A DNA stretch of 64,000 bases from a bacterium. GTDB taxonomy: Bacteria > AUK180. Under the pieces are notes generated by a model, which did no database searches, was not told where the DNA came from, and saw only the letters and a program-made list of their open reading frames with translations. A program made the position numbers and the translations under genes. Positions 1 to 57,329 of the stretch are shown here, one piece after another (within the stretch, counting starts at the first letter, position 1; the number at the start of each line of letters is the position of its first letter). Where the stretch lies: assembly GCA_023133295.1 (NCBI GenBank), contig JAGLWT010000116.1, forward strand, positions 13,218 to 77,217, given 5' to 3'.

Positions 1-170
1 TTCCTTTTGAGTTTGGCGGGCAGTATCCCTTGCGGGTGATCAAATAAAGCAATTTTCTCTATGACAATTTCATTCTCAGTTTCCGGTAACATAATCGGCG
101 AGTCGGTTGTGGCAGAAATAAAGATTTGAGACATTAAGAGAAATATGATTACTGTGATCCTACTTTTCAT
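1..170 (-). CDS. Hypothetical secreted protein, N-terminal part only (the gene continues past the window start)
   Basis: Reverse-strand reading from about 170 gives MKSRITVIIFLLMSQIFISATTDSPIMLPETENEIV..., a signal-peptide-like N-terminus. It is absent from the ORF track, presumably because it is partial and under 60 aa. Coordinates were derived by hand. Confidence 0.25.
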   Translation of the reverse strand, partial: MKSRITVIIFLLMSQIFISATTDSPIMLPETENEIVIEKIALFDHPQGILPAKLKR

Positions 171-224
171 ACCTTTAATAGTGTAACAGATAAGGCTTCT
201 ATTTCCAAACACAGTAGCCAAGCG

Positions 225-420
225 TGCCCATTGTTCATTGTCAATTGTACATTGTTCATTGATTTTTTCTTCTGGATTCCCCACTTCACATAGGCAAATA
301 GCTGGATCTTTCGTTACACTCAAGATGACAAATCCGGATGTGGGTATTATTCCTATTTTCACCTCGTACTTCGCACCTCGTACATCGTACTGGTTTTTAT
401 GGTGTCGGGATGTCAATACT
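225..420. repeat. Intergenic mosaic repeat island (modules A 'cattgttcattgattttttcttctggattc', B 'ggatctttcgttacactcaagatgacaaatcc', E 'cctcgtacttcgcacctcgtacatcgtac')
   Basis: Module A recurs identically at about 10199-10228. Module B recurs reverse-complemented at about 51971-52003. Module E recurs at about 8655-8675. Confidence 0.6.
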
Positions 421-788
421 GCTAAAAGGCGAGCATGTGGCTGTAATTCACCCGAATCCCGTAACAGGCCCTACCGAAGAGGCAATTATGGTGTTCGATC
501 TCAACTGGCTCTTTGATAAGGATGGGTTCGTTATCGCGGGTGTGGGATTAGGGAGAAGTTATGGCATCTGTAATCTGTTCCTCGAGATAATTTATCACTA
601 TGGCTTCATTGACATTAATGAATCGAATCCGACCGCTGAATACATGAACCGCTCACTGATATTGGAATTCGGTATAGGATTTAAATTGAAATAGACAACA
701 ATTCTGTCCGAAGAAGCTTTCAAATTCTGAACACACTTTGACACATACTTGAGAAATGTTATAATTATTCAGATCATAGGAGTTCGAA

Positions 789-1529
789 ATGAGAAAAAGG
801 GGTTCGTTCAGAGATTGCTATTTCATCCTATTGCTTTCTATATTTTTCATTATATTGGGCAGAACAGGATATTCGGATTCATTGAACATGAACTATGTTG
901 GGGGATTTCTGTGTCATAGAGTTGTAGAAACACATGCGACTACGGATACTCTGTATATAGCAACAGAAGAATTGGTAATAGTTGTTGACATCACAGATGA
1001 GAACTATCCATATCAGAAGGGATTCATTGAGCTCGATGCGTCCGTATATTCTATTGATATTGTTGAAAATATGGCGTATGTCGGAACCTATAACGGTCTG
1101 CGGATTTTTGATATCACAGATATTTCCGCACCGGTGGACCACGGGATGTATTCGACTTCCGAACCGGTTTCCAATTTAGAGGCGCAAGGATCCATGGTGC
1201 TTATGGTAGAAAGGGACGAGGGATTCAGACTGCTCGATGTCTCGGACCCGGCAAATCCCGTACTTGATTTCCAGCTGGATTCCTACAATGCCGAAGATGT
1301 ATGTATTCAGGATACCGCAGCATATATGCTTGAAAACGGCGGGCTTCTTATCTACGATATATCAAATTCTCAATCGCCGGCACTGTTAAGCGATACCACA
1401 TATCACAGCAGTCAACAGATAGATGTGGATAGTGATTTCGGAGCGATAATGGCATACAGCACCGTAAGAGTGTTAGACCTCTCGAATCTTACCGGACCTG
1501 TTCAAACCGATACTTTTTCTTACCAATGA
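789..1529 (+). CDS. LVIVD-repeat (beta-propeller) surface protein, N-terminal segment. It ends at an in-frame TGA and continues in the same frame as 1542..3455
   Basis: N-terminal signal peptide (MRKRGSFRDCYFILLLSIFFIILG). Repeated LVIVD-type units (LVIVVDITDENYP, LRIFDITDISAP, LLIYDISNSQSP, VRVLDLSNLTGP). Confidence 0.6.
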   Translation: MRKRGSFRDCYFILLLSIFFIILGRTGYSDSLNMNYVGGFLCHRVVETHATTDTLYIATEELVIVVDITDENYPYQKGFIELDASVYSIDIVENMAYVGTYNGLRIFDITDISAPVDHGMYSTSEPVSNLEAQGSMVLMVERDEGFRLLDVSDPANPVLDFQLDSYNAEDVCIQDTAAYMLENGGLLIYDISNSQSPALLSDTTYHSSQQIDVDSDFGAIMAYSTVRVLDLSNLTGPVQTDTFSYQ

Positions 1530-1541
1530 GATTTCGAAGAA

Positions 1542-3455
1542 TTGAGCATTTCCGGCAGCAAGGTTTATGTGGCATATGATGATGAGGGATTAAGCATACT
1601 TGACATCAGCGATCCGTATGATGTGGTTGAGATCGGGACCCATGACCCCGGCGACAGATTTCCAACATATCTTACAGCCGAAGTCTTTGGAGAATATGCT
1701 TTTATAGGGACATACAGCGGTGTGCGGATATATGATATATCTGTTTCCTCGGCACCCTCCTATTTATCATATTACAATTCTCCGGAATATCCTCACGAAA
1801 CGGTGTCCGTGGGTAATTACTCGTATACCGCAGCTGATGACGATGGTCTTGTGATAATGGACATCACTGACCGACAGCACCCGAAAGCGATAAATTATGT
1901 CTATTATGATATGGGACATTTCTACGGACTTGATGTAAAGGGAGATTACGCTTATGCCACCGACATCGGAACAATTAATATCGCCGCGCTGAAGGTCTTT
2001 GACATCTCAGACCCCTACAATGTGGATTTTGTCGCGTTCTACCCTATTTCCACCGACTGGTTCTGGGGGGTAACTATCTATGGGGATAATGCGTATATCG
2101 CATGTAAGGACCTGGGAATGCTGATCATCGATATCACTGGAACAGGGGTATTGAGCAAAGTAGGGGAATATGTTCCCTCCGGTGATGTCTATGATATCGC
2201 GATAGAAAATGATATCGCGTATGTCGGACACGCATATGGATTTTCCGTGGTAGATATTTCTGAACCGTCAAATCCCCTTGAGATAGGAACACTGAATTCA
2301 ATTGCTCCTGCGGGAAGTATCACATTAACAGGGGACGGGTACTGTTATATAGCATCTCCAGACCGCTTTTCGGTGGTGGACATTGACGACCCCAGGCATC
2401 CGCAATTTATAAAAAGCATAATTCCGGGAAACAATCTGACGTCTGTTTCCATGACGGGAGATTTTCTCTACGCAAGTACTTTTTATGATTATTATAATTC
2501 CAGGGTTATCGCCTATGATATCAGCGATCGGGAAAACCCCGTGCAGTCCGCCTACATGGATGTTCCCGGCTTGGCAATATACACTTCAGCTCATGGCAAT
2601 GAGATATATGCCGGAAACGCATACAGAGGGCTTTTCCTTCTTGACAATGAGTCCGCCGCTGTAATCGCGGGAACTGTTGTCAATACGATGGGGAGCAAGA
2701 TCTCGGAAGTCAAACTTGAGTTCACCACCGCGGGAGGCAGGAAGGTCCTTTGTAAATCGGATGAGGAGGGATACTATTTCACACATTTGAAAAAAGGTGC
2801 GGACTTCGCAGTCACGCCTTTCCATCCGATGTATTATTTGGAACCCGACAGCCGTACATATACGGCGATCAACGGCGATTTTTTAAATGATACTTATACT
2901 GCAATACCGAAAACGGCTTATACGCTTTCTGGGGATATTAAGGATCAGAATGATCAGGGTATTCCTGACGTTGAACTCGATATATATGTCCTCGGGGACC
3001 TGTTCAGGACGGTATTAACGACCGGAACAGGAAGTTATAGCTTCTCAGAACTTTTCGAAGGAGCAACATATACCGTTATCCCGGAAAGGGATTTCTTCCG
3101 GTTTGAACCCGGGCAGGTGGTTATTCCAGGTGTTTCAGGAGACCATATCCAGGATTTTACCGGATTTACGATCAAATCACTTGAATTTGTAAAAGCCTAT
3201 CCGAATCCTGTTATCTACCCCGATGAAGTATATGAGATCGCTTTTGAAGGATACACAGAGGATTGTACAATAAGAATCTTCACTATTTCCGGGGAACTGA
3301 TAATAGAGTTGACACCCGTAGGCCCACAGACCTTCTGGGACCTTAAGAACGATGAAGAGAAACTTATTGCCTCAGGCGTGTATATCTACTCGATCACGGA
3401 TCCTGAAGGCAATAGAATGGCCGGTAAGTTCGCTGTGATCAAAAGCGGGAATTAG
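1542..3455 (+). CDS. LVIVD-repeat protein (continuation) with two carboxypeptidase-regulatory-like domains and a T9SS C-terminal sorting domain
   Basis: More than ten LVIVD-like repeats (LSILDISDPYD, VRIYDISVSSAP, LVIMDITDRQHP, LKVFDISDPYN, LIIDITGTG, SVVDISEPSNP, SVVDIDDPRHP, IAYDISDRENP). CarboxypepD_reg-like segments (GTVVNTMGSKISEVKLEF...GYYFTHL; LSGDIKDQNDQGIPDVELDIYV). C-terminus YPNPV...TIRIFTISGELI...ASGVYIYSI...KFAVIKSGN matches a Por_Secre_tail type-A CTD. The track start is TTG. Probably the same gene as 789..1529. Confidence 0.7.
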   Translation: MSISGSKVYVAYDDEGLSILDISDPYDVVEIGTHDPGDRFPTYLTAEVFGEYAFIGTYSGVRIYDISVSSAPSYLSYYNSPEYPHETVSVGNYSYTAADDDGLVIMDITDRQHPKAINYVYYDMGHFYGLDVKGDYAYATDIGTINIAALKVFDISDPYNVDFVAFYPISTDWFWGVTIYGDNAYIACKDLGMLIIDITGTGVLSKVGEYVPSGDVYDIAIENDIAYVGHAYGFSVVDISEPSNPLEIGTLNSIAPAGSITLTGDGYCYIASPDRFSVVDIDDPRHPQFIKSIIPGNNLTSVSMTGDFLYASTFYDYYNSRVIAYDISDRENPVQSAYMDVPGLAIYTSAHGNEIYAGNAYRGLFLLDNESAAVIAGTVVNTMGSKISEVKLEFTTAGGRKVLCKSDEEGYYFTHLKKGADFAVTPFHPMYYLEPDSRTYTAINGDFLNDTYTAIPKTAYTLSGDIKDQNDQGIPDVELDIYVLGDLFRTVLTTGTGSYSFSELFEGATYTVIPERDFFRFEPGQVVIPGVSGDHIQDFTGFTIKSLEFVKAYPNPVIYPDEVYEIAFEGYTEDCTIRIFTISGELIIELTPVGPQTFWDLKNDEEKLIASGVYIYSITDPEGNRMAGKFAVIKSGN

Positions 3456-3699
3456 CGCAGTTATTTCAAGATAGCGAATTTTCCAGACTTATTTTCAGTT
3501 GAATGCCTTTGTGTTCTTCACTGTTAGGGCGAAGTATCCGATCTTGTCCGTAAGCGCCGATACACTTCAGCCAAAGTCATCCGACTGATGAGGATGGTTG
3601 TCCCGATATCTGCAAACTGCTACGGGATAAATTGCGTTTATTGCAAATTGCTTTATCATCAGATATGATCTCCCATTATCATTATAATTATGTATCATT

Positions 3700-3800
3700 T
3701 TCAGATTGTAATGCAAGAATTGTCTCCATTCCCTGCAGGAGATGGAGTCCCGATCAAGCCGGGAATGACGGAGGACAGGTCAAGCCCTGTCCCTACGATT
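3700..3800. repeat. Intergenic repeat modules C ('gtaatgcaagaat...ccattccctgcaggagatgg') and D ('ccgatcaagccgggaatgacggaggacaggtcaagccctgtccctacg')
   Basis: Near-identical copy at about 8467-8560. Module D recurs reverse-complemented at about 51866-51900, and its first half recurs at about 54813-54835. Confidence 0.6.
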
Positions 3801-3865
3801 TTGCGACAAATGCCATTTATCCAGCACTTTTCAAGAGTGCTGGACTACCGCCACTATTACTTTCC

Positions 3866-4636
3866 CTAAAGTCTTATTATCCAGTTCGCTCCCTTATTGT
3901 TATCACATTCCCCTTTTTCATTAAGGAAAGTGAATTCTACGGTATTAGTTCCTTCAGGTATCTTTATTATGATGATCCACAGATCATCGGAAATATTAAT
4001 CATTCTCCTGTCATGAATGTCCTGCCAGTCATTGAAGCCGGAATGCAGCTTCATCTTGCCCGCTGTGGGAAAGATCGTTCTATAAAGGATATTCGCTTCA
4101 TTCCCCTCTTCATGCGCTGATATTGAAAAACTGATGCTTCCTTTTTCCTTTACTTCCTCCAGCTGCAGGAGTCCGAAGATATCCTTTAGTATCTGCTCTT
4201 TGAATTCACTGCCGGGCTCCCTTTTAAGAAACTCATAATAGTTGGAAATAGTTTCGTTCTTCCGGCGGTTCAAAAGATGGAGGTTGGCGAGATAATAGTA
4301 CGGATCCGGAAAATCCTTGTCCCTATCGATAGAGTTAGTGAACTCCTTCTCCGCTATATCAAGCTTGTCCATCAGATAATAAAGCAGGCCTACATCGAAA
4401 TGAAGTTGGGAATCATCCTCTCCCAATTCAAGAAGTGTGTTGTAATACTTTAGCGATTTATCATAATCAGTCTTTAAATAATATGAATACGCAAGGGAAT
4501 TCAGTACATCAATGTTCTTGCTGTCAATGTCATAAGCTTTCCGAAACTCTTTCAGGGCTTCATCAACAGAATTGTCCTCTAAATACAGTTCTCCCATTTC
4601 GATAAGATCGTTGATATTGCTTTTGTTTTCTTCCAT
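3866..4636 (-). CDS. TPR-repeat protein with a C-terminal CBM48/AMPK-beta-like (glycogen-binding-type) domain
   Basis: N-terminal TPR-like repeats (ALKEFRKAYDIDSKNIDVLNSLAYSYYLKTDYDKSLKYYNTLLEL...). C-terminal region HSGFNDWQDI...W...PEGTNTVEFTFLNEKGECDNNKGANWII resembles a CBM48/CBM20 fold. It lies 30 nt downstream of the second bactofilin gene. Confidence 0.45.
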   Translation of the reverse strand: MEENKSNINDLIEMGELYLEDNSVDEALKEFRKAYDIDSKNIDVLNSLAYSYYLKTDYDKSLKYYNTLLELGEDDSQLHFDVGLLYYLMDKLDIAEKEFTNSIDRDKDFPDPYYYLANLHLLNRRKNETISNYYEFLKREPGSEFKEQILKDIFGLLQLEEVKEKGSISFSISAHEEGNEANILYRTIFPTAGKMKLHSGFNDWQDIHDRRMINISDDLWIIIIKIPEGTNTVEFTFLNEKGECDNNKGANWIIRL

Positions 4637-4666
4637 TTCTTTACACCACTTTGCACAAGACTTATG

Positions 4667-5209
4667 CTATTTCCTTTTCTTGCGCTTAATATTTGGCCCC
4701 ACATTCTTCTTTTCGGATTTCACCTCTGTCTTTTCTTCATTTTTCACTTCTTCTTTCTCTTCTTTCTTTGCTTCGGCTTCTTTTTCCGCTACAGGCTCTT
4801 CTTTCACTTCTTCAACGGGTGCAGGTTCTACTTTTTTCTCTTCGGCAGGCCCGTCCTTTTTGGGAGAAATTTTAAGATCCCCCATATCAATTTTCATCAT
4901 ATCAATATTACCGCGAAATTTAGCTCCATCCTTGATAACAAGCCTTGGTGCCTTGATGTCCCCTATCATTCTACCGGATTCGGTTATCTCGATCTTATCA
5001 TTTACTGTAATGTTCCCGTTTATCCGACCACTGATCTCGGTGTTTTGAGTCTGAACATCCGCCTCAAGCACACCCGTCTCCATTATTGTAAGATTCTTAT
5101 TTAACTTGATCGATCCCTCAACTCTTCCTTCAATGATCAGATCTTCATCACCTTCAAGCTCTCCCTTGATAACAATCGTTTTTCCAATGACAGTATGTTT
5201 ATCTTCCAT
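4667..5209 (-). CDS. Bactofilin-family cytoskeletal protein with a Lys/Glu-rich C-terminal tail
   Basis: Bactofilin beta-helical repeat pattern (VIGKTIVIKGELEGDEDLIIEGRVEGSIKLNKNLTIMETGVLEADVQTQNTEISGRINGNITVNDKIEITESGRMIGDIKAPRLVIKDGAKFRGNIDM). RBS GGAGGA upstream of the ATG at 5209. KE/PAE-rich tail. Confidence 0.85.
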   Translation of the reverse strand: MEDKHTVIGKTIVIKGELEGDEDLIIEGRVEGSIKLNKNLTIMETGVLEADVQTQNTEISGRINGNITVNDKIEITESGRMIGDIKAPRLVIKDGAKFRGNIDMMKIDMGDLKISPKKDGPAEEKKVEPAPVEEVKEEPVAEKEAEAKKEEKEEVKNEEKTEVKSEKKNVGPNIKRKKRK

Positions 5210-5227
5210 GTCCTTCCTCCGTTTGGA

Positions 5228-5632
5228 TTATTCCTTGTCTTCCGCGCTTTTCTGCATATCGATACTCCCACGGAATACCGCACCGTCAGCTAAAACAACT
5301 CTGGGAGATTTGATATCTCCGGTCATTTTTCCATGATCCGTTATCTCAACGCGGTTGGTCGCTATGATATTTCCTGTGAGTTTTCCCGAGACCTTGATCT
5401 CCGAAGTATCAATATCAGCCTTGACATCTCCCGTCATATCAATAAGAAGATGTTTCTTCAAATTAATATTTCCCTCGATCTTACCTTTAATAATAAGATC
5501 CTCTTTACCAGATACCTCCCCTCTTATCAGTATGGATTCTCCAATGACGGTGGGTTTGGATTCGCTTGACGCACCGGTGTTTTTGTATCCCCCGGGCTTA
5601 CCTTGCTCATTTACTTTTCTATTATCATCCAT
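5228..5632 (-). CDS. Bactofilin-family cytoskeletal protein (paralog). Start revised to the internal ATG
   Basis: Bactofilin repeats (VIGESILIRGEVSGKEDLIIKGKIEGNINLKKHLLIDMTGDVKADIDTSEIKVSGKLTGNIIATNRVEITDHGKMTGDIKSPRVVLADGAVFRGSID). The track ORF runs to 5719, but the ATG at 5632 (MDDNRKVNEQ...) is preceded by GAGGAG at -8. Confidence 0.8.
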   Translation of the reverse strand: MDDNRKVNEQGKPGGYKNTGASSESKPTVIGESILIRGEVSGKEDLIIKGKIEGNINLKKHLLIDMTGDVKADIDTSEIKVSGKLTGNIIATNRVEITDHGKMTGDIKSPRVVLADGAVFRGSIDMQKSAEDKE

Positions 5633-5954
5633 GGTTCTATCTCCTCGTAAAATTCTAACACATAACCCGGGATATGTCAATTCTTTGATTGATGCCTGAT
5701 TTGATTGATGCCATAACATATTGACTTTTGCTTCCGATCCATATAGTTCTCCATGTAATACTCTATCGCTGACATTTTCCTTTCCTTTTTACCGATAACG
5801 GACATCTTTATTGAAATATTCCTGCTGTCTTTTCATAATTCCAGCGGACCATCTTTTCTCTCTTGCACATAATGGCGCTCTGTCCTTTTCATGTATGTTA
5901 TCTATTTGTGATAATAACAATTGAATAAGAAAAGCATTTTTGGTATAATTCACC

Positions 5955-8012
5955 ATGATAAACAAGGATCGCTTGCCAAAACTTGATAAACTGCCTTCAT
6001 ATGGCAAATTCGGCTCCCTGATCAAGCTTAATGAGGTAGAGAAACTTGTTTCAAGATACCTTATGGCATTCGACGAACTTTTTAATGAAATTGAAAAATC
6101 GAGAGAATTAAAATCACAGTTCAAAGAATTGAGAGCTGAACATCAAAAGATCCTGAAAAAGAAAGATAGGAATGAGGAAGAATTGCAGAGAAAACTTGGA
6201 CTTGCCAAAGATAGATTCCTGAATATGAAAAGTGAGATCAAGGACCTTAACAAGCAGATCAGCGGCCTCAAAAAACAAACCGACTCGGCAGGCGCATCCT
6301 TTGAAGAAATTGAAAAAGACCGTAATGAAATATACAATGAACTCAAAGCCCTTGAAAATAGCAGTGACGGGGTGAAAAACGACCTGAAGGACACGAAGAA
6401 AGAGAATAGACGGCTGTTAAAGGAAAACACAACCGCGGTGGATGCTTTGGAAAAACTGGAGAATGATCAGAAAGAAAAGACTTCCGAGATTTCCGGATTA
6501 AGATTAAAGATCGACGAGATTCAAGCTGAGAAAGAAAGAATTCAAAACGAGTTCGATGGTCTGAACAATAATTTGTCCGATTATGCTTTTGACAAGGAGA
6601 ACCTGAGCGAGCAGCTTGAAAAGGTCACAACTAAACTATCGGATAATGAAAGCGCTTTGAAGAACAACAACAATATCATCAAAAATCTGAGTGCGACCAT
6701 AGGTGAGCTCAGAGGTGAAATAAAAGACCTTGATAAGGACAAGGATGATCGCAGAATAGAAGTGAAGGAATTGAAATCACTTCAGAAGGCCGCTGACAAA
6801 GATAAGGTAAAACGGGAAAATAAAATTGTCAAATTTGAAAATAAAATTGAAAAACTGGAGTCAGAGAAAAGGGCTGTTGCCAATGAAAGGGATTCTATTT
6901 CAGAAGACTTGAAAAAACAAATAGATAAACTGAATAGCGATATCTCTGAATTTGAGGAACTGCTTTCCGATTCCGAGGTCGACCATGATCGTTTAAAAGG
7001 CGATACCGAAGAAAGTAAAGCTCACATTAAAGAACTTAAGGCTACTATAGATAGCCTCAGAAAGAGTCTTGAAGAAAATGATGAAAAACTAAAAGAGAAC
7101 GAAGCAGAAAAAGAAAGGTGCACTTCTGAACTGAAGAATAATCTAGAATCAAGAGACAGTGAGATCTTAAAAATCAGCAAAGAACTCGATGCAATCACGC
7201 AGGACGATTTAACGGCACAGAATGAGCTCAAGGGAAAAGAACAAGGTATAACCATGCTGAGCACGGAGATAGAAGACAAAGATAAGCAGATCGATCGGCT
7301 CGGAATAAAGCTTGAGGAATTATCCAAGGACGACCTTGATATAAAATCGGAGCTTAAAGAAAAGGCGTCGCTTATTGACAAACTGAGTAAAAACATTTTT
7401 GAAATGACTTCTGAAAATTCCGGGCTTAAGGATGACCTGGAAAAACTGGGCAATGAAAGAGACGAAAAAGAAACTCTTGTCTCAGAGCTGAGTGAAAGGA
7501 TCGGTCAGCTTGAAGGCCAGGACGGCAATATAAAAAGCAGTATTGCTGAAAAAGAAGGGTTGATCGCAAATCTGGAAAAGACTAATGCGGATATCCTGAA
7601 AGAGAGGGAGGATCTTAGTAAAGAAATAAAGATTATCCTCGAAGAGATCAAAAAGGAAAAAGAAAATAACAAAGAATTGAGTAAACAATTGAAATTAAAA
7701 GAAAAGGAAATGGAAGGACTTCTTAAGAAGATAGACGAGGTTCTGGGGACTCAACTTAAGGAGGTCGAGGATCCCCTTGCGGAATATCTGAATCTCCAGA
7801 AACTGGAACCAGAGGAAATACCCAGCGACAAACAAACAACTGGCGGAGATGAATCGGATATGCAAAACAAATTGATGAATACCATGAAGGAAAATAAGGA
7901 ATTGAGAGAGCAGATGACAGAACTGCAGGATATCCTGCAATCCAGGGGGAATGAGATAATCCGTTTCAAAGAGCAAGTGGAAGCTCTTCAGAAAAAACTC
8001 GATGGATCTTGA
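5955..8012 (+). CDS. Long coiled-coil protein (685 aa, Lys/Glu/Leu-rich heptad-like sequence, no ATPase motifs seen)
   Basis: Continuous coiled-coil-type low-complexity sequence (ELKSQFKELRAEHQKILKK..., KELKATIDSLRKSLEENDEKLKENEAEKER...). No Walker A motif, so not a canonical SMC. Divergently transcribed from the bactofilin pair. TATAAT at about 5944-5949, immediately before the ATG. Confidence 0.6.
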   Translation: MINKDRLPKLDKLPSYGKFGSLIKLNEVEKLVSRYLMAFDELFNEIEKSRELKSQFKELRAEHQKILKKKDRNEEELQRKLGLAKDRFLNMKSEIKDLNKQISGLKKQTDSAGASFEEIEKDRNEIYNELKALENSSDGVKNDLKDTKKENRRLLKENTTAVDALEKLENDQKEKTSEISGLRLKIDEIQAEKERIQNEFDGLNNNLSDYAFDKENLSEQLEKVTTKLSDNESALKNNNNIIKNLSATIGELRGEIKDLDKDKDDRRIEVKELKSLQKAADKDKVKRENKIVKFENKIEKLESEKRAVANERDSISEDLKKQIDKLNSDISEFEELLSDSEVDHDRLKGDTEESKAHIKELKATIDSLRKSLEENDEKLKENEAEKERCTSELKNNLESRDSEILKISKELDAITQDDLTAQNELKGKEQGITMLSTEIEDKDKQIDRLGIKLEELSKDDLDIKSELKEKASLIDKLSKNIFEMTSENSGLKDDLEKLGNERDEKETLVSELSERIGQLEGQDGNIKSSIAEKEGLIANLEKTNADILKEREDLSKEIKIILEEIKKEKENNKELSKQLKLKEKEMEGLLKKIDEVLGTQLKEVEDPLAEYLNLQKLEPEEIPSDKQTTGGDESDMQNKLMNTMKENKELREQMTELQDILQSRGNEIIRFKEQVEALQKKLDGS

Positions 8013-8033
8013 TCCGGATATTATCAGGGACGG

Positions 8034-8390
8034 TCAGTCCGAATTTTCATCGATATAATCTGAAATCAATCTGACATCGGTGTCAGACATATTTTTGAAT
8101 TCTATACCGAAATCATACAGAGTCTTATTATTTTCGTGTTTTGTGAAAACCCTCACCACCTGACCCTGACATTCGATTACCTTATCTTCAAATTCAAGAT
8201 CAAAGACAAGCGGTTTAAATACAGAAAGTTCGATCACACTGTCAGTTTCAAGATCTAACTCCAGACAGGTTCCCCCTCCGCTTATATTAATCAATTTGGC
8301 CGAATATTCCTTTTCATCTCCGCCAAACATGAATTTAATATCTGCGCTATGAGTGTGCAACCGTTCATGTTTTCTCTTATTCTCATTCAT
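8034..8390 (-). CDS. PilZ-domain protein (c-di-GMP receptor type). Start revised to the internal ATG with RBS
   Basis: PilZ signature: KRKHERL (RxxxR-like), then DIKFMF, then AKLINISGGGTCLE (DxSxGG-like). The ATG at 8388-8390 is preceded by AAAGGAG at -13 to -7. The track ORF extends to 8501, which runs into a repeat island. Confidence 0.6.
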   Translation of the reverse strand: MNENKRKHERLHTHSADIKFMFGGDEKEYSAKLINISGGGTCLELDLETDSVIELSVFKPLVFDLEFEDKVIECQGQVVRVFTKHENNKTLYDFGIEFKNMSDTDVRLISDYIDENSD

Positions 8391-8464
8391 ATGAATTCTC
8401 CTTTGTATAAAAGCAGTATATAACAAAATACCCGGATTATCAAGATAGCCTGATCCAAAGTTGG

Positions 8465-8690
8465 AGTATTGTAATGCAAGAATCATATCCATTACCTGCA
8501 AGAGATGGATCCTTCGCTCCGCTCAGGATGACGAAAGACCGGTCAAGCCCTGTCCCTACGAAGATCCTCTATTATTTCTCATTTCCCACTTGTGCCCTTG
8601 TCACTTGTGCACTTGTGCTCTGCGAAGCATGTCCATTGTACATTTCTCTTTATCCACCTCGTACTTCGCACTTGCAATAAAACTGGATCC
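8465..8690. repeat. Intergenic mosaic repeat island (modules C, D, E plus 'cacttgtgc' micro-tandem)
   Basis: It matches 3706-3800 (modules C and D) and 358-395 (module E, the cgtac-rich unit). Internal 'cacttgtgcccttgtcacttgtgcacttgtgc' repeats occur at about 8588-8620. Confidence 0.6.
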
Positions 8691-8745
8691 CACGGTCACA
8701 AGCTCCTTCTGGATGACGGAGGACGGGATAAGCTCCGTCTCTATA

Positions 8746-9207
8746 TCAGATGCCAATCCTGTAAACTTTTTGGAAACGCGCAAGGAACCATTTGTATGTC
8801 GCTGATTCGTCCCATGGCAAATATTTTACATTCACATTTTTTATCATTTTCCGGGCTATCGAAATATCCTTTTCCTTACGATTTTTCCTCAAGTCCGATA
8901 CAAATGCATTGTCGTCAAATACTTTCTCAAAGTATAATAGATACAGAAGAAAATTTCCCGGATCGTGGTTGATCTCATCCTCAAGTCTCTGGAGATATGT
9001 CAGATAAATAGGTTTTTTGATCGTACCAGCAGTTAGTCCGGGGCCGATCTTTTGGACATGATAGCCTCGGAGTGATTCCCATTTCGCACTTTTATACAAA
9101 GAACGATAAATAACACTATCGTCTGTTCTTTTATAACTGATAATCAGTGCGAGAACTCCAACTAACAACGCAATTATTGAAATAATTAATGATATTTTTA
9201 TTTTCAT
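8746..9207 (-). CDS. Hypothetical membrane-anchored protein (single N-terminal TM)
   Basis: MKIKISLIISIIALLVGVLALIISY TM anchor followed by a soluble domain. The likely start is the internal Met, placed immediately after the stop of the upstream gene. No recognisable family. Confidence 0.35.
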   Translation of the reverse strand: MKIKISLIISIIALLVGVLALIISYKRTDDSVIYRSLYKSAKWESLRGYHVQKIGPGLTAGTIKKPIYLTYLQRLEDEINHDPGNFLLYLLYFEKVFDDNAFVSDLRKNRKEKDISIARKMIKNVNVKYLPWDESATYKWFLARFQKVYRIGI

Positions 9208-9209
9208 AA

Positions 9210-10022
9210 TCATTCCATTGTGTTGCATACATGCGCACAGTCTACAGTTGAAGAAGTATCTGCCGATCCTTGAGTGCAAGTTACCTGATCACCATATATT
9301 TCTGCACACTTAATTTGACAAGCATCATGCCAATCAATTCCTTCCTTCATATTGGCTTCAACCCCCCAGCCTTTACACAGTTCATTCATTGCGACCTGTT
9401 TGTGCGTGTGACACGCACAGACCAAAATTGTTTGAGGTAAATAAAGATTGCCATCAGGATTCTCTACCATCCAATAAGTGGCCTCTAAATACATTTTGAA
9501 GATTGTCTCAAATTCTGGGTCCTGGATCCATGTTGTATGAATATATAATTCTTCAATCCGCTTCATGGCCGAAAAAAATTGTTTTTTATTTATCAAATGG
9601 GTTACAGCGTTAATTTTATGAGAAACTGCTTTTAAGTGACCAGCAGTATCAAAGCCGACCCAACCAAGATCAATGAAAGTTTGCATTCTTTCCAAAAAAG
9701 CAAAAAACTTAGGGTCTACAGGGATATATTCTCTATCATGCAAATCCCCCTCATCGCCTTTCAAGAAAGGGTTTTGGACCCTATCATGATCCACAGATAT
9801 TTGAATTTGGCATGGGTCTTCTTCATAAAGAAAAATGATATAGCCATTGTCATCAATTTCAAGAATATCAATCATATCTGAGAATTCACTATAATGAAGC
9901 GAATACTCACTACTTGTATTGAACCTATACAATGACTCTTCAGGTGTGGTTAATTCCTTATGTTCCTGACACCCTAAAAAAAAGACACCTAGGAAAACTA
10001 TAATAAGTAGATATTTTCTCAT
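9210..10022 (-). CDS. Hypothetical lipoprotein with a Cys/His-rich C-terminal region
   Basis: MRKYLLIIVFLGVFFLGCQ lipobox-type signal peptide. AGGAGG RBS before this ATG (the track ORF start is at 10070). The C-terminus CACHTHKQ...CKGWG...CQIKC...CTQG...CAHVCN suggests a metal- or disulfide-rich domain. Confidence 0.4.
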   Translation of the reverse strand: MRKYLLIIVFLGVFFLGCQEHKELTTPEESLYRFNTSSEYSLHYSEFSDMIDILEIDDNGYIIFLYEEDPCQIQISVDHDRVQNPFLKGDEGDLHDREYIPVDPKFFAFLERMQTFIDLGWVGFDTAGHLKAVSHKINAVTHLINKKQFFSAMKRIEELYIHTTWIQDPEFETIFKMYLEATYWMVENPDGNLYLPQTILVCACHTHKQVAMNELCKGWGVEANMKEGIDWHDACQIKCAEIYGDQVTCTQGSADTSSTVDCAHVCNTME

Positions 10023-10194
10023 ATCTCCTCCTACTGCCAGCAGTATAACACGGTCTACGATTAATAGCAAGCACCGTTTCTTCCTTTACAGACAATACAT
10101 TCTCCCGCTAAAATGTGGCAGAATGAAAGGCAAAGGGATGGATTCCTGATATTAAACCTTGTCCCTGGGGCATTGGTCCACTGGGTCACTGCTT

Positions 10195-10315
10195 TCAGCA
10201 TTGTTCATTGATTTTTTCTTCTGGATTCTTCTCGTGACACGCTCCACGCCACACCGTATGTGTTTCTATTCTCCTTCCTCAACTATTCACTGTTCACTAT
10301 TCATTATTCACTATT
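10195..10315. repeat. Intergenic repeat island (module A identical to 250-281; module G 'ttcactgttcactattcattattcactat')
   Basis: A 30-nt exact match to 250-281. Module G recurs at about 52150-52210 ('cactattcgttgttcactatactt...cactattcattat'). Confidence 0.6.
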
Positions 10316-10322
10316 TTTAGAT

Positions 10323-10411
<89 letters not shown>

Positions 10412-10450
10412 GATTTGAAAAGGATGCTTTTTCAGCTTCCTTTGAGTTTG

Positions 10451-10861
10451 TTATTTATTGTCTGGCTTTGCTGCCGGAGCAGGTTCTGCTGTTCCTGCCT
10501 TTTCTGCGGGCTCAGGTGTCTCTGTGACCGGTATTGCCGCTGTCTCGCCCTGTCCGGGTAAAGGCATTTCACTTTCCTGTTGAACCTCTGTCTGGCCGGT
10601 TGTCCCCGCCTTTTTCATAAGAGAGGTTTCCGCCTTCTGGGTATTACTCGCAAGGATCAAAGAGATCACAAAAAAGAGTATGGCCAATATGGTCGTAAGT
10701 CTGTTCAGGAACTTGTTCCCTCCGGTAGCACCGAAGAATGAATCTCCGCCGCCGCCGCCAAACAAACTTGACATATTTCCACCCTTGCCTGATTGTAAAA
10801 GAACAGAAATAATGAGTATTATACAAACAATAATGTAGATTGTCAATAAAAGTGCAAACAT
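10451..10861 (-). CDS. secG: Preprotein translocase subunit SecG (with a C-terminal Pro/Ala/Glu-rich extension)
   Basis: MFALLLTIYIIVCIILIISVLLQSGKGGNMSSLFGGGGGDSFFGATGGNKFLNRLTTILAILFFVISLIL is the canonical SecG signature. It sits downstream of tpiA, as in many bacteria. Confidence 0.85.
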   Translation of the reverse strand: MFALLLTIYIIVCIILIISVLLQSGKGGNMSSLFGGGGGDSFFGATGGNKFLNRLTTILAILFFVISLILASNTQKAETSLMKKAGTTGQTEVQQESEMPLPGQGETAAIPVTETPEPAEKAGTAEPAPAAKPDNK

Positions 10862-18035: not shown

Positions 18036-18258
18036 AGGACCTCCTATAATAATTGTTTAGATATTATACCAAATATATGTTTTGAATTCAATATGTCAAA
18101 ACTTATTGAGCGGTATTAAGATGCTGAAAAATAATTTCTGCAGTTTTCCTTTCTCCTTCCGAAGTAAAATGAAAATTCTGAGGGTCTCACCATTTCACTC
18201 TCAACTTAATTTTACTTTTGTGGAGCGGCCGGTTTTGGAGATCCGTGAATAATAAGTA

Positions 18259-18591
18259 TTAGTTCTCCTGCTTATTCTCCAGAATAATTTCTATATAGGG
18301 ATTTTTCTCAGAATAAATATCGTTGAGGCCGACATATCTCCATTGCTGTCTGTTTGGAGTTCCGGTACTATCATGCAAAAAAATCAATATTGGCTTATAT
18401 GCTTCTTTGAATTTCAGATAGCATATTAACGTATTTTCATCCTTTCGAAAACTGTACCCCTGAAAAACTACTGGGCCACAATCTCTATTAATCATAATAT
18501 CCGGAGATAAATCTATTTCTGACTTACTTTTCGCACATTTCTGCAGATAGAACTCTGTTGATAACCTATCGAAATAAAATGGATACGCCAA
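18259..18591 (-). pseudogene. Orphan or truncated copy of the C-terminal domain shared by the GT-C-like membrane proteins at 21108..24877
   Basis: YLKFKEAYKPILIFLHDSTGTPNRQQWRYVGLND aligns with FLRFEKYKPIYLFFHDNFEKPTYQKWRYIDYKLLD from the C-terminus of the 601-aa protein. There is no membrane domain upstream. Confidence 0.5.
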
Positions 18592-18884
18592 CTCTGATTT
18601 CGATTCAAAAAAGCTTTCCCGAGAAAAAGGTCGATGGCAGGATCAATGTCACTTCTAAATACTCTTTTATTTTAAAATATCATATGAGTATTGAAGTTAA
18701 CTGAAAGGTTCTCCGAAGAGAGTAAGATCATATCGCTTCTTAATTCTGAAAATATCACCTCGCTGAATCCTATATTGTGAAACCGCCAACGCAGATACCC
18801 GTCAGATATGACTTTAATATTGTGTGGGGACTCAAATGATGGCATTTTTTCAATTAAACCTCTATTGTTGGTATTTTTCCTGCT

Positions 18885-20231
18885 TTGATGTATAATTTAC
18901 CTATGAAGGCAGTAATAATTGGCGCGGGATTAGCCGGTATCAGCGCGGCAAAATCCTTGCATGAAACAACTTTGTTCGACATGATCACATTGCTGGAAAA
19001 GAATCCGTATATTGGCGGAAGCGCCCACTCATTTTCCTTTGACGGTCTTCTATTTGACACTGGACCGCATCGTTTTCACACGCATAGCAAAGAGCTTAAA
19101 TCCGAAATAATATCTCTCTTTCGTGAAAGTGAGTTGGTATTGAAGAAAAAATCCAGCTCGATTTTTTTCAGAGAAAAAATATTGAACTACCCGATAGAAA
19201 TGAGTGATGTTCTCTTCAAACTACCATTAACCGATTCCGTTTCTTCGCTTAGTTCCTACTTATCTTCAAAGATCAGAAATGGCTTCAGACAGCAGGAACC
19301 CGCGAATTTCGAGGAGTATATAATTTCTAATTTCGGAAGAAAACTATATAATATCTATTTCCGCCCGTACACCGAAAAAATGTGGCATATGCCCGCCAAG
19401 GACATCTCCTCTCTCTGGGCAACGGAGAGGATCCCTTTGGCATCTTTTTCAAAGCTACTTCTAAAAACTGTCGTATCTCTATTCAAGCGGCGTTTCAAAG
19501 AGAGCCACCCTCACTCTCCATATGAAACCCTTTTTCTTTATCCCGAAAACGGCATAGAGATGATCTCACAGCGCCTGATACCCGGGGGCATTGAATTATT
19601 AAAAGGATTTGAAGTAAAGAGTGCTGTAAATAACGGAGATAGGCTGACCGCTGTATCTAACGGAGACATGATAGTTGAAGGCGACCTTTTCATTTTTACA
19701 AATCCGCTGCCGCAAACCGCACGGATGTGTTTAAACACCGACGCAGCAGATCTGAAATACCTGCCGATACATATGTTTTTTATTCCGATCGAAACCGCAC
19801 GGATATCCCGTAACCACTGGATATATTTTCCGGATACAAAAGATGTTTTCTACAGGGTATCAGAGATGAAAAATTTCACAAACACATACCCGGAGAACAG
19901 GACCTCGCTCATTGTTGAAGTTGGAGAATTGCACAATGACAGCGTGGACGAAACTTTCGAGCTCATTATCAAGCAGCTTTCAGAAAAGGGACTCCTGCAA
20001 GCCCGGCATATCCGTAAGGGTAATTTTAAATATCATTTTCTGAAGAACGGATATCCTATATATAAAAAGGGTTTTGAAGCAAAAAGGGAAATGATGTACT
20101 CAAAACTCGGCCATATAAAAAATGTAGGCATTGCGGGCAGGCAGGGGCTGTTCTCATATTTGAATATGGACGCGGCAATACTATCCGGCAGAAGGACGGC
20201 GGAAAATTTACTTACAGAGCTTAAGAACTGA
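18885..20231 (+). CDS. FAD-dependent oxidoreductase, UDP-galactopyranose-mutase (Glf)-like
   Basis: MKAVIIGAGLAGISAA dinucleotide-binding motif (the likely true start is the ATG at 18903). GGSAHSFSFDGLLFDTGPHRFHT closely resembles the Glf GG..(x)..GPHIFHT motif. At 448 aa it is longer than canonical Glf. Confidence 0.5.
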   Translation: MMYNLPMKAVIIGAGLAGISAAKSLHETTLFDMITLLEKNPYIGGSAHSFSFDGLLFDTGPHRFHTHSKELKSEIISLFRESELVLKKKSSSIFFREKILNYPIEMSDVLFKLPLTDSVSSLSSYLSSKIRNGFRQQEPANFEEYIISNFGRKLYNIYFRPYTEKMWHMPAKDISSLWATERIPLASFSKLLLKTVVSLFKRRFKESHPHSPYETLFLYPENGIEMISQRLIPGGIELLKGFEVKSAVNNGDRLTAVSNGDMIVEGDLFIFTNPLPQTARMCLNTDAADLKYLPIHMFFIPIETARISRNHWIYFPDTKDVFYRVSEMKNFTNTYPENRTSLIVEVGELHNDSVDETFELIIKQLSEKGLLQARHIRKGNFKYHFLKNGYPIYKKGFEAKREMMYSKLGHIKNVGIAGRQGLFSYLNMDAAILSGRRTAENLLTELKN

Positions 20232-20819: not shown

Positions 20820-21107
20820 ATAAGCAATAATAAGAAATACCGTGATAATGTTCGGGAGCTTTGATGCGTATGCACTTGAAATCAGTTTTGATATCAGAGG
20901 AACAAAAAATGGGTTATCGGGTCCCCGATGTAATCGGGGTTTCCAAGGTCACACGCTCAATAACGATAATGACAGTACTTTTTTAGTCATTCCTGTCCCA
21001 TATTAAGCATGTACTCAACTTGATTGGTTGTGCGGGGTAAACTGCATCGTGATAATCTCATTTTCAATTCTTTCCTTATCAACCTACCAACCTATCAACT
21101 TATTTAC

Positions 21108-22913
21108 TTAATTCACTGATATTTCCATTTTGTAATTATTTTTATCTCCAACGGGATAAATGGGCTTCAAATTATCATCGGTAAACAGAATATAGCCATT
21201 TTTGACATCACCTTTAATCTCCATATCAATTTTTACATTTTTTTCTGAATCAAGTAACTTATAGTCAATATATCTCCATTTTTGATAGGTAGGTTTTTCG
21301 AAGTTATCATGAAAAAACAAATATATCGGTTTATATTTTTCAAATCTTAAAAAAGTGATCAGTGTCTTTTTTTCTTCCTTTATTTTTATTGAATAACCTC
21401 TAAATCTAAAATATTTAAAATCCTTATTCAATATATTTTCCGGATTCATTTCAATTCTTTTGTTATTTGCAACTCTATACAATTTTGTATCAATTAAACT
21501 CCGTTCAAAGATAATCGGGAAGGTGTTGTTCCCACATATAAATGTTCCTTTTATAAAAAGATCAAAAGGAAGTTTCGTTTTTCTACTGTAAGATTTCATT
21601 AACATAATATTATACGGTAATTCATTCTTTATAATTAAATTTTCTAAATTTGCATTTGTAGCGATTAACATATCCGCTTTCATTTTTCCAAAATCAAGTT
21701 CCGGAATATTATTTTTATAAAACAAATACCTACTTGCTTCACCGCTTACAGCATAGATTTTCTTATTTTCGTTATCGTTAATTACTTTGTTTCCGACCTC
21801 CGCTGCCGTCTTTGAGTAATCGTAAAATCCTGTAATAAATATTAGAGAAAATGAGATTGCAAATATTAGTTCAAATACACTAAATTTTCTTTTAAATAGA
21901 TTATCTCTTGAATAAAATATAATGAACGGAAATATTAAAGAAAAATTCCTTACCGTTGGCTGCGGATACACAATTATAATTGCAAAAGATATAAAAAGTA
22001 ACCACAAAATATTTTTAAGATCAAATAGCAAAAGGATAGAAATAAGCAAATAGAGAGAAATAATGAATGCAATAATTTTTGAAATATCCGTATTCAAATA
22101 GATACAAAGAAATAATATAGGTAAAAGGAAAAAATACATTTTCTTTTTTCGGGATAAATAGATTAGGATTGGTAATGTAAGAATAGCTAAGTTAATTGGA
22201 ACCGAAAATACTTTTTGAAAAAATCCTATCCTATTTCCGTAATGGTAATCTCCTCTCCATACCAAGGCATCCAAAATAACATTTCCCCCTTTTTCAATAT
22301 AACATATTAGGATATAAAGAAAAATAACAATGATTGGAAAAAAGTAAATGTATACTTTCTTATCTTTTCGTATGATCATATCTATTAGAAAAAACAAGGC
22401 AACTAAAATTATAGCGTAATTTGTTAGAAGTGAAAAGGACAAAAACAAAGATGATAGAATAATATCTTTTAATTTTCTACTTTTTTTATAATCTTCATAT
22501 TTTAAGAAACTTAATATCAGAAAAACAAAGCAGTATGCTTCATGCATAAATGAATTAACAAACAACAAAACAATTGGTGAAATAAATACCAGAAATATTA
22601 GATATTTTTTAGCGGTATATTTTCTAATTATCAGCATAAACACAAAAAGGTAGAGCAAACTTGAAAAAAGATAAAATAAAAATATGTCCTCCTGAATTGG
22701 GAAAAGCGAGGCAAAGAGTAATAAAAGCGGCGGATGCGTATCATTATATACATAAGATTCTTTACCGTAATATGAAAAAGAAGCATTAAATAAACCGCCA
22801 TTTTTGATTGATATCGCGCTAATTAAGTTTTTGGAACTATCCCAAAAGGGAGGGATGAAAATAGTTACTAACACCAGTACGGTTAAAATTATAATGAGAT
22901 ATTTCTTTTTCAC
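21108..22913 (-). CDS. Multi-TM membrane protein, GT-C fold ArnT/PMT-like (GT39/GT83-type) putative glycosyltransferase with a conserved C-terminal soluble domain
   Basis: More than ten predicted TM helices. The first extracytoplasmic loop contains NDTHPPLLLLF, like the HPPL motif of PMT_2/ArnT-type GT-C enzymes. The C-terminal about 110 aa (FLRFEKYKPIYLFFHDN...YQKWRYI...VKNGYILFTDDNLKPIYPVGDKNNYKMEI) is shared with the protein encoded at 22925..24877. Confidence 0.45.
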   Translation of the reverse strand: MKKKYLIIILTVLVLVTIFIPPFWDSSKNLISAISIKNGGLFNASFSYYGKESYVYNDTHPPLLLLFASLFPIQEDIFLFYLFSSLLYLFVFMLIIRKYTAKKYLIFLVFISPIVLLFVNSFMHEAYCFVFLILSFLKYEDYKKSRKLKDIILSSLFLSFSLLTNYAIILVALFFLIDMIIRKDKKVYIYFFPIIVIFLYILICYIEKGGNVILDALVWRGDYHYGNRIGFFQKVFSVPINLAILTLPILIYLSRKKKMYFFLLPILFLCIYLNTDISKIIAFIISLYLLISILLLFDLKNILWLLFISFAIIIVYPQPTVRNFSLIFPFIIFYSRDNLFKRKFSVFELIFAISFSLIFITGFYDYSKTAAEVGNKVINDNENKKIYAVSGEASRYLFYKNNIPELDFGKMKADMLIATNANLENLIIKNELPYNIMLMKSYSRKTKLPFDLFIKGTFICGNNTFPIIFERSLIDTKLYRVANNKRIEMNPENILNKDFKYFRFRGYSIKIKEEKKTLITFLRFEKYKPIYLFFHDNFEKPTYQKWRYIDYKLLDSEKNVKIDMEIKGDVKNGYILFTDDNLKPIYPVGDKNNYKMEISVN

Positions 22914-22924
22914 ATCAATAATCT

Positions 22925-24877: not shown

Positions 24878-25390
24878 GATGATCAGTAATAAAAAAAACT
24901 TAATTCCTTTTAAATTATATTTTTCTATAATAACTAACCATCCTTTTCTTTAAGGAACCTTTTCTCGCTTCCTTCGGTCATTTCAGATTTTTTTAAATCT
25001 CCTTCTCTATCGTAAGTCTGCTCCTTTTTGACATATTGCCTTCATTTCATCCGAAAGGACGAATTCCATTTCGCTACGCTGCATTCCATTCGCCCTTCAT
25101 GGTGTAAACTATTGTTTGTCTCACTTTCAAGGGAGAGCAGGACATTGTGACCTATCAGATTAGTTGAAATATATCGGATTTTTCAGAAAAAGTCAAATAA
25201 TTTATTGTTTCTATATATCAAAATATGCGTTTTTTTATTCTAACCATTTTGATTTGATAATATTTTTAAGTTCACGATTGCCTTTAACATTTAAATGATA
25301 AGTTTTATCGAGAGAGAGTTTATCCGGAATAAAAATGCAACTTTTTATATCTAATTCCTTATTAATTTTTTCAATATCATCCACCATTTT

Positions 25391-26218
25391 TTAAAAAAAA
25401 TAATACTTATTATCTTTTTTGTTCTGTGTCAACATATAATTCCCAAGTATAATAATTGACAAATTGTATTCATTCTGAATCTTTTTTATAAGATACCTAT
25501 ACCTATTTAATCCTTCATTATAATCTTTACTGTACTTTTTAAAATATTCATAACTGTCTTCTCCTTGATAGTATTGGCTTTTCTTTTTGTCTTTAATATT
25601 TAATGATAAATACATCGGGTGCAAAAGAGCAATCAATGGATCATTATTTATAATCCAGGGAAATGCTCTTTTATTGGGATAAACTATTGAATATTCATTC
25701 CCATTTTTAACTATTGTCGGGGCTGATCCTGGATAACGAAAGAACTCTCCAAAATCATTTCCTATATAGAAAATAATAAGCACATTTGAACCTTTTGAGA
25801 TATTATATTTTTTAAGTAAAAGATACTCTTGTATCGGCGAATATGTAATAACCCCGAAATTATAAAAATAATACCCATTCCCCTCTTTATTTAACAGAGA
25901 TGTAAAGAGATTGTTGTTTATAACATAATTATCAGTTTGAGAATCTCCCAATACATATATAGGAATCTCATTATCTCTTATTTTTCTGCAATTTCGATTA
26001 CCATATTTCCCTGTTTTGATCTTTGCCTTTGATCGTCGAGCCTGATAAAATTCATTGTGTTTAATTCCAAGTATATTATCATAAACATAGGAACCATATC
26101 CATTTTTACCCTTATTAAAACCACTGATATTACAATGAACAAATAAAATAATATCCAATAATAAAAAACAAATTATAATAAAAAGTAGTATCTTTAAAGC
26201 TTTTTTGAAGATATTCAT
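25391..26218 (-). CDS. SGNH/GDSL-family hydrolase-like protein (possible glycan O-acyl esterase or transferase)
   Basis: N-terminal TM anchor. IPIYVLGDSQTDNYV gives a GDS(x) block-I motif. Overlaps the upstream 773-aa gene by 4 nt. Confidence 0.45.
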   Translation of the reverse strand: MNIFKKALKILLFIIICFLLLDIILFVHCNISGFNKGKNGYGSYVYDNILGIKHNEFYQARRSKAKIKTGKYGNRNCRKIRDNEIPIYVLGDSQTDNYVINNNLFTSLLNKEGNGYYFYNFGVITYSPIQEYLLLKKYNISKGSNVLIIFYIGNDFGEFFRYPGSAPTIVKNGNEYSIVYPNKRAFPWIINNDPLIALLHPMYLSLNIKDKKKSQYYQGEDSYEYFKKYSKDYNEGLNRYRYLIKKIQNEYNLSIIILGNYMLTQNKKDNKYYFF

Positions 26219-46940: not shown

Positions 46941-46946
46941 ATACTC

Positions 46947-47831: not shown

Positions 47832-47834
47832 GAT

Positions 47835-57315: not shown

Positions 57316-57329
57316 AAATCCGCTGACAA

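Follow-up and report, generated by a model that had tools for sequence, protein, structure and literature searches.

The intergenic repeats in a 64,000-nt stretch of bacterial DNA (contig JAGLWT010000116.1 of assembly GCA_023133295.1, lineage AUK180; hereafter, the window) probably form a mosaic of the NIME/BIME kind. It would be built on hairpins of the NTS/SRM type, on filler segments private to the lineage, and on arrays of 7–8-nt units, and from the sequence comparisons given below we put this reading at about 60%. The repeats themselves are real, mosaic, and dispersed. They are a new example of a repeat kind that is already known, not a new kind. From the comparison with published systems, we infer that the hairpins belong to the Ssn-related motifs (SRM) and act as these do. 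The window is part of the metagenome scaffold ZHAN22-2_SAMN18200500_METAG-scaffold_46 (European Nucleotide Archive (ENA) record ERZ23498665, 125,552 bp), and its first position lies at about 44,424 of that record. The sample was sediment RS_12 of the Site-F cold seep, South China Sea (PMC9357000). We extended the window on its own scaffold by 9.2 kb to the left and 8.3 kb to the right, giving 81 kb for analysis, and the intergenic regions were delimited by the gene calls of the source records.

About 13 hairpin modules showed one stranded layout: YGTC, a pyrimidine-rich stem beginning with AT, a loop of 7–50 nt, the complementary stem ending with AT, and CCAK. About 14 copies were observed in the 81 kb, nearly all of them intergenic. 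Inside the constant flanks, several stems were used (ATTCCCG, ATCCT, ATCTT, ATTCT, ATTATCG, and ATTCCT). The opening of all 13 hairpins was YGTCAT or differed from it by one base (GCCAT, GTCAG), corresponding to the HGTCWY head, and the 20–50-nt inverted repeat with the conserved trailing C (..ATCC) of SRM/NTS-type hairpins was present. The head, the hairpin, and the C after the palindrome are the same as in the SRM that flank cd10448 GIY-YIG genes of various bacteria, Wolbachia and Rhizorhabdus among them (PMC11893778). GTCAT...ATCC sites with three fully complementary inner bases occurred eight times in the 81 kb, compared with a mean of 0.74 and a maximum of 4 in shuffles; seven of the eight were intergenic and carried YGTCAT...ATCCAK. 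A looser structural scan gave 12 hairpins versus 2.6 ± 1.6 in shuffles. The GC content was 52% for the hairpins and 40% for the remaining repeat-bearing intergenic DNA. Between the two copies of a 94-nt direct repeat (3705–3798 and 8468–8561), the flanks were 88–91% identical, and the central hairpin TCCCGATCAAGCCGGGAATGACG was swapped for TCCTTCGCTCCGCTCAGGATGACG of equal length.

In Neisseria, the oriented 28-nt NTS, CGTCATTCCCGCGMAVGCGGGAATCYRG, is an extension of the dRS3 repeat, and SsnA, a GIY-YIG protein of small size, binds and cuts it only as single-stranded DNA (ssDNA), which modulates natural transformation (PMC11893778). NTS-like SRM flank Ssn genes across bacteria in an SRM-ssn-SRM layout (PMC11893778). 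The window copy at 52099–52126 fits the published SRM pattern and differs from the Neisseria NTS by 3 mismatches over 28 positions, with 0 such matches expected by chance. The 23-nt hairpin core TCCCGATCRAGYCGGGAATGACG was used as query against one genome per GTDB species and had exact matches in at least 118 stretches, spread over more than 15 phyla. These included Campylobacterota, Bacteroidota, Ignavibacteria, Patescibacteria, Cloacimonadota, Nitrospirota, Alpha-, Gamma-, and Deltaproteobacteria, Chloroflexota, Caldisericia, and Planctomycetota, among others. Apart from a conserved TGGAT/AAGAT on the 5′ side, the flanks of these stretches were unrelated; hairpins of other SRM types were often found in the vicinity. 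In a metagenome-assembled genome (MAG) of Thalassospiraceae (locus L032), the TCCCGATCRAGYCGGGAATGACG hairpin and an NTS-type hairpin lie on both sides of a gene for a 95-aa single-domain GIY-YIG protein (Pfam PF01541, E = 1.2e-16), which is the SRM-ssn-SRM layout of PMC11893778. The SRM immediately upstream of this gene shares 96% identity with the NTS-like copy of the window. A literature search on the exact hairpin strings found no description besides PMC11893778. Separately, a second pan-bacterial hairpin family, ..CCTTCGACAGGCTCAGGGCGAACGG.., was seen at 3100–3600 of L018 (a Sulfuricurvum MAG) and in the flanks of L038, L057, L086, L104, and L124; its translation gives the spurious peptide 'PFDRLRANG', and it adjoins another small GIY-YIG gene.

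The segments between the hairpins behaved differently in the comparison with 825 kb of loci from other phyla. The SRM hairpins found matches there, whereas the fillers M_A, M_B, and M_C, the H2, 69-nt, and 154-nt units, and the arrays matched only L100, a MAG from the same cold-seep study (RS_10_39, JAGLGN010000001.1). The one exception was the heptamer array at 10282–10315, with a weak match (E = 0.007) in the Cloacimonadota locus L054. The M_C/M_B region 3584–3714 gave no match in the other-phyla loci, BLAST of 3560–3830 against plasmids gave none, and the lineage-specific H2 module had a single chance match in JGI metagenomes, in a high-GC coding region. The 154-nt module was 82% identical to L100 1892–2045 (E = 8e-40 to 9e-40 in two comparisons), the region 350–392 matched L100 1758–1817 at 83–89%, and the sequence of the CATTGTT array was found again at L100 975–1011. 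M_C has an inverted copy at 52305–52370 (88%), and M_B a copy at 8046–8121 (84%) of L003, the left-flank DNA of the same scaffold upstream of the window. As judged from these matches, the mosaic is a combination of universal hairpin cores and private fillers.

The degenerate 7–8-nt arrays were confined to repeat-bearing intergenic regions; CATTGTT, ACCTCGT, CACTTGTG, ACTATTC, and AACCTCC are among their units. Similar units were present in L100, in the distant relative L131, and in one Cloacimonadota locus. Near the hairpins of the 118 listed other-phyla loci, heptamer arrays were about twofold enriched (n = 37 arrays), which leaves their role unexplained. Heptanucleotide repeats termed LSSRs (TAACTGA) occur in Beggiatoaceae, Cyanobacteria, and Bacteroidetes, likewise without a known function (PMC4679880). 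The window arrays resemble them in their intergenic position, 7-nt period, and patchy phylogenetic distribution. In contrast to LSSRs, the window units are degenerate, belong to several sequence families, have 3–8 copies, and stand among hairpin modules instead of directly upstream of start codons. The ACTATTC array is separated by 7 nt from the 3′ terminus of tRNA-Leu(GAG) (10323–10411, minus strand), the sole tRNA in the window.

Recognisable modules total about 1.7 kb and occur in 8 of the 11 intergenic regions longer than 250 bp, with a coverage of 11–68% of each; the regions 5633–5954, 18036–18887, and 24878–25390 contained none. The first-pass annotation had described a genome-specific family that fills most large intergenic regions. 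Its spread is confirmed, but 'fills' is an overstatement, and 'genome-specific' holds for the filler modules and not for the pan-bacterial hairpin cores. All the regions listed there hold some modules, but the segments 3584–3700, 8690–8746, 10082–10150, 20905–21105, and 52260–52392 had been missed. An exact 30-mer reported twice was recovered at 250–279 and 10199–10228 (chance expectation 0). A 48-nt unit reported in four copies, two of them inverted, is a single copy at 3750–3797 when up to 3 mismatches are allowed. The other 'copies' are pieces of 28–36 nt at 8528–8561 (91%), 8713–8746 (74%), and 54806–54833 (93%), with just one inverted piece, at 51866–51901 (89%). Self-BLAST detected eight significant intergenic repeat pairs in the window (Table 1), and the copies of modules were 74–96% identical to each other. 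The suspicion of spurious open reading frames (ORFs) over the repeats proved correct: the called ORFs 20864–20986, 51976–52206, and 57312–57659 lie wholly within modules and 57669–58028 partly, and the three module-overlapping ORFs that were scanned gave no Pfam match. In practice, such repeats fragment short-read assemblies and yield spurious ORF calls in MAGs.

Dispersal had been set against a local duplication restricted to the window, and the copies found elsewhere speak for dispersal. On the same scaffold, outside the window, copies lie at window positions −1293 to −1091 and +64485 to 64516 (an array copy). L003 7919–8121 joins M_A (cf. 10082–10150), an SRM with H2 (cf. 3741–3787), and M_B (cf. 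3637–3714) in a changed order. In L100, the same modules surround an unrelated response-regulator gene, and the heptamer arrays there are nearly the same. In an independent assembly (Logan contigs of SRR13892600), contigs stopped within modules at about window positions 303, 3769–3789, 8626, 20927, and 51949, as expected of sequences that are repeated in the assembly graph. The two ends of one contig, SRR13892600_32851, lie in the two copies of the 69-nt element.

Repeat clusters were also observed at places of structural change. ValRS and SPL overlap in all four distant-relative genomes (L130, L131, L134, and L135/L136), whereas in the window they are separated by a repeat-laden 712-bp insert, on which the gene callers placed two Pfam-less ORFs. 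In the sister strain L129 (sample ERZ23498528, 93% identical in DNA), the window segment 51868–54956, with the large repeat cluster, PMT_2, and the SRM pair by MurJ, is missing. L129 has instead, at 2077–3042, a 966-bp methyltransferase gene in opposite orientation, and the homology boundary falls exactly at 51867, where the first module starts. This 3.1-kb cassette is bounded by SRM clusters. Among the earlier ideas, that of a recombination hotspot is the one to gain support, since repeat clusters lie at the breakpoints both of this cassette replacement between strains and of a lineage-specific insert. The five distant-relative loci (MurJ 52–57% identical to that of the window, 93 kb from four genomes; L135 and L136 are one genome) contained no such hairpins or modules, bar one AT-only, chance-like match that is counted twice in L135 and L136; one of the five does carry heptamer arrays. 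The closest MurJ homologues beyond the own strain cluster were 52–57% identical, and the next, from Cloacimonadota, about 38%. The presence of the mosaic in the window lineage and its absence from the relatives point to a recent acquisition and expansion. By sequence comparison, the mosaic thus appears to have expanded recently in this cold-seep lineage, in association with local gene-content change. The insert also holds a 33-nt inverted repeat (57773–57805/57998–58030), the arms of which are 88% complementary and lie on either side of 192 nt. The right arm adjoins the stop codon of ValRS, the repeat overlaps a Pfam-less ORF called at 119 aa, and our searches yielded no second copy.

The closest known counterpart is the NIME array of Neisseria, in which dRS3 alternates with RS elements in a GC wave along the array and which was long considered peculiar to that genus (PMC1797815). 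It was shown only in 2025 that a widespread family of single-strand nucleases targets the NIME hairpins (PMC11893778). The window and the Neisseria arrays share the oriented signature CGTC, ATTCCC...GGGAAT, CYRG, the clustering of intergenic hairpins that alternate with many filler families of 30–150 nt, hairpins richer in GC than the fillers, clusters that flank strain-variable genes, and a host with DNA-uptake genes. In the window, as in NIME arrays, hairpins alternate with many families of repeat segments (20–200 nt) of variable order and orientation, and the arrays stand beside genes that vary between strains, here at two loci. In contrast to Neisseria, stems and loops vary more in the window and often exceed those of the NTS in length, several stem families coexist, 7–8-nt arrays are interleaved, and the host is an uncultured cold-seep lineage in whose 81 kb no ssnA homologue was found; the likeness is one of sequence alone. 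The window displays a NIME-like architecture in an uncultured deep-sea lineage, with universal cores, private fillers, and variable genes beside arrays, and it provides substrates and loci for asking whether Ssn/SRM systems shape gene exchange outside pathogens.

A mechanism of the following kind would fit the favoured reading. The lineage would have acquired an SRM/Ssn system horizontally, after which the hairpins would have spread and been shuffled by recombination at or near them. Filler segments of 30–150 nt are joined in varying order and orientation at or beside the hairpins, like the RS elements of Neisseria. As in Neisseria, a putative Ssn might cut single-stranded DNA, for example transforming DNA, at the hairpins and so shape the exchange of flanking genes. 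The window encodes ComEC (DUF4131 and Competence domains, 37353–40253) and a 492-aa ComEA-like HHH_3 protein (42390–43868); the organism may be naturally transformable, which would bear on the Ssn model.

Several results weigh against this reading. The published degenerate SRM pattern fits only 1 of the approximately 13 hairpins, most of the others having longer loops than it allows. As ssDNA, the single hairpins were weak (−1 to −10 kcal/mol, z-scores 0.1 to −1.95) and none was individually significant, and several may be decayed relics. Motif and phmmer searches of the 81 kb of scaffold, of about 100 kb of DNA from relatives, and of the loci L100, L129, L130, and L131 yielded no GIY-YIG/Ssn gene, and the genome may lack one. 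Searches of NCBIfam and PDB gave no assignment of the GIY-YIG protein from L032 to a subfamily (cd10448), and a small GIY-YIG gene was present in 2 of the 118 listed TCCCGATCRAGYCGGGAATGACG loci, not clearly above chance. The link between repeats and structural variation comes from two loci.

The same weak or degenerate hairpins, the absence of an Ssn gene from the accessible DNA, and copies that are only 74–96% identical rather than near-identical would also suit hairpins that are inert, decaying relics of past horizontal transfer or recombination, without a cognate nuclease and left as debris where selection is weak. However, several cores match copies from other phyla letter for letter, the YGTC and CCAK flanks persist despite differing stems, and the clusters lie at recent differences between strains that are 93% identical. 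We therefore regard the relic explanation as rather unlikely. A wider version of the favoured reading, in which letter-perfect hairpins circulate across more than 15 phyla as portable gene-cassette junctions, seed private mosaics, and mark boundaries of ssDNA cutting or recombination, is speculative and, in our judgement, unlikely. If it were true, uncultured lineages such as this one would use a Neisseria-like minimal mobile element system, and the 7–8-nt arrays could have arisen as a side effect of slippage or repair linked to the hairpins.

REP/BIME elements of Enterobacteria and Pseudomonas carry GTAG as the head of the palindrome and are paired with a Y1 (RAYT) transposase. The window elements are likewise short intergenic palindromes, hairpin-forming, clustered in mosaics, and presumed to have a dedicated hairpin-recognising enzyme. 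As to the kind of object, the first-pass comparison with REP/BIME was right. It is nevertheless quite improbable that the window elements were spread by a RAYT (IS200/IS605-like Y1) transposase or are miniature inverted-repeat transposable elements (MITEs) mobilised by an insertion-sequence transposase. The head is YGTC and not GTAG, no Y1_Tnp family or other transposase was present among the called genes of the 81 kb, and the hairpin cores match NTS/SRM. The MITE comparison fails because the modules (25–150 nt, against 100–400 bp for a MITE unit) lack terminal inverted repeats and target-site duplications; the sole 33-nt inverted repeat pair, at 57773–58030, which could be cited in its favour, has no visible target-site duplication.

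A role in RNA seems to us equally doubtful, whether as terminators, attenuators, or small RNA genes, which had been proposed for these units, or as hairpins that stabilise mRNA. The 154-nt module folds into two strong hairpins (z = −2.4), a comparison of its two known copies shows one compensatory GC-to-UA pair, filler M_B has a promoter-like TTGCAA-17-TATGAT, and some stems include G-T pairs. However, both strands of the 154-nt module fold equally well, suggesting a palindrome at the DNA level. Promoter-like sites in 1–10500 numbered 37 against 26.1 ± 4.5 in shuffles, modestly above expectation, and were unremarkable on the modules. Scans of 1–10500 and 51300–58100 showed no intrinsic-terminator-like site on any module, and the site counts were not above shuffles. 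No Rfam family matched the modules at gathering thresholds or at E ≤ 5, tRNA-Leu being the sole credible match, and with respect to the neighbouring genes the elements are found in either orientation. The published SsnA also works on ssDNA and not on RNA (PMC11893778). Finally, chimeric metagenome joins are hardly credible as the origin: scaffolds can be mis-joined at repeats and the Logan contigs do break at modules, but these independent contigs overlap the ENA scaffold and enter the modules from unique sequence on both sides, and the gene order across the modules (ArgRS-ValRS-[insert]-SPL-MurJ) is syntenic with relatives.

Table 1. Hairpins, fillers, arrays, and self-BLAST repeat pairs of the window (window coordinates; strand given where assigned).
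Feature	Position	Strand	Remark
Degenerate heptamer array CATTGTT x4.7 (229–261) overlapping a 41-nt module with the exact 30-mer	225–290		Second copy 10199–10239
SRM-like hairpin TGTC-ATCTT-loop-AAGAT-CCAG	300–332	−	Inverted copy (94%) at 51972–52004
Heptamer array ACCTCGT x4.3 and 24-nt module	350–392		Module copy at 8648–8671
Fillers M_C (3584–3649) and M_B (3637–3714)	3584–3714		Lineage-specific
First 94-nt composite: small hairpin CTCCAT/ATGGAG, SRM hairpin, H2 hairpin GGACAGG/CCTGTCC	3705–3798		Direct repeat of 8468–8561
SRM hairpin CGTC-ATTCCCG-gcttgat-CGGGA(c)T-CCA	3743–3770	−	23-nt core letter-perfect in at least 118 stretches
Second 94-nt composite	8468–8561		Central SRM 8507–8532 (−): CGTC-ATCCT-gagcggagcga-AGGAT-CCAT
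Octamer array CACTTGTG x7.6 and 24-nt module	8587–8674		Module copy at 353–376
Degenerate SRM-like hairpin (CGTCATCC...GGATCCAG), then H2-like hairpin with shifted stem GACGGAG/CTCCGTC	8685–8746	−	
Filler M_A	10082–10150		Copy at L003 7919–7987 (86%), upstream of window
Second 41-nt module copy (10199–10239) and heptamer array ACTATTC x4.9 (10282–10315)	10199–10315		
69-nt compound SRM-like element TGTC-ATTATCG...CGATAAC-CCAT around inner CCCCGAT-tac-ATCGGGG	20905–20973	−	Inverted copy (96%) 51896–51964
Octamer array following the 69-nt element	21077–21103		
Start of largest cluster: inverted H2 (51866–51901), 69-nt element (51896–51964), SRM-like copy (51972–52004)	51866–52004	+	
Octamer array TTTGAACA, L100-shared module (52067–52108), NTS-like SRM TGTCATTCCAGCGAAAGCGGGAATCCAT (52099–52126)	52024–52126	+	
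Heptamer-like runs, SRM TGTC-ATCCT-...-AGGAT-CCTT (52215–52243), inverted M_C (52305–52370), 13-nt repeat ATCCCCGTCAGT	52150–52392	+	
Two SRM hairpins between MurJ and PMT_2	54806–54904	−	Structural scan
SRM hairpin CGTC-ATTCCCG-gctcgat-CGGGAAT-CCAG	54807–54832	−	
SRM hairpin CGCC-ATTCCT-...-AGGAAT-CCTG	54874–54904	−	
Repeat-laden 712-bp insert between ValRS and SPL	57316–58027		About half recognisable modules
Insert: array CGTGTAA	57347–57381		
Insert: 154-nt two-hairpin module	57408–57561		
Insert: SRMs	57558–57583 and 57591–57625	−	
Insert: arrays	57674–57752		
Self-BLAST pair	250–290/10199–10239		Direct
Self-BLAST pair	300–332/51972–52004		Reverse complement
Self-BLAST pair	3584–3649/52305–52370		Reverse complement
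Self-BLAST pair	3705–3798/8468–8561		Direct
Self-BLAST pair	3743–3770/54806–54833		Direct
Self-BLAST pair	3764–3799/51866–51901		Reverse complement
Self-BLAST pair	20905–20973/51896–51964		Reverse complement
Self-BLAST pair	57773–57805/57998–58030		Reverse complement

Some other features of the window were observed. The two 94-nt direct repeats, which stand 4763 nt apart, enclose a cytoskeleton-like cluster at 3866–8390 with a TPR protein, two bactofilins, a PilZ protein, and a 685-aa, strongly purine-skewed coiled-coil protein that has a weak crescentin-rod match. Giant LTD/Big_5 surface proteins are encoded at 43878–51371, after the ComEC and ComEA-like genes; a weak GIY-YIG match inside an LTD gene was dismissed.

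An AT-rich island at 21000–30000 had a GC content of 27–31%, compared with about 44% elsewhere. It contains tandem PMT_2-like paralogues (21108–22913 and 22925–24877), two carbamoyltransferase paralogues (29751–31412 and 32352–34043) with 68% nucleotide identity, and genes for an unknown protein of 773 aa, a methyltransferase, a GDSL lipase, and a GT2. The island is probably an acquired glycan-modification cluster. Within the module-free 852-bp region 18036–18887, the segment 18301–18405 is 65% identical over 105 nt to 21237–21341, in the 3′ part of the PMT_2-like gene 21108–22913, and by this similarity may be a gene fragment.

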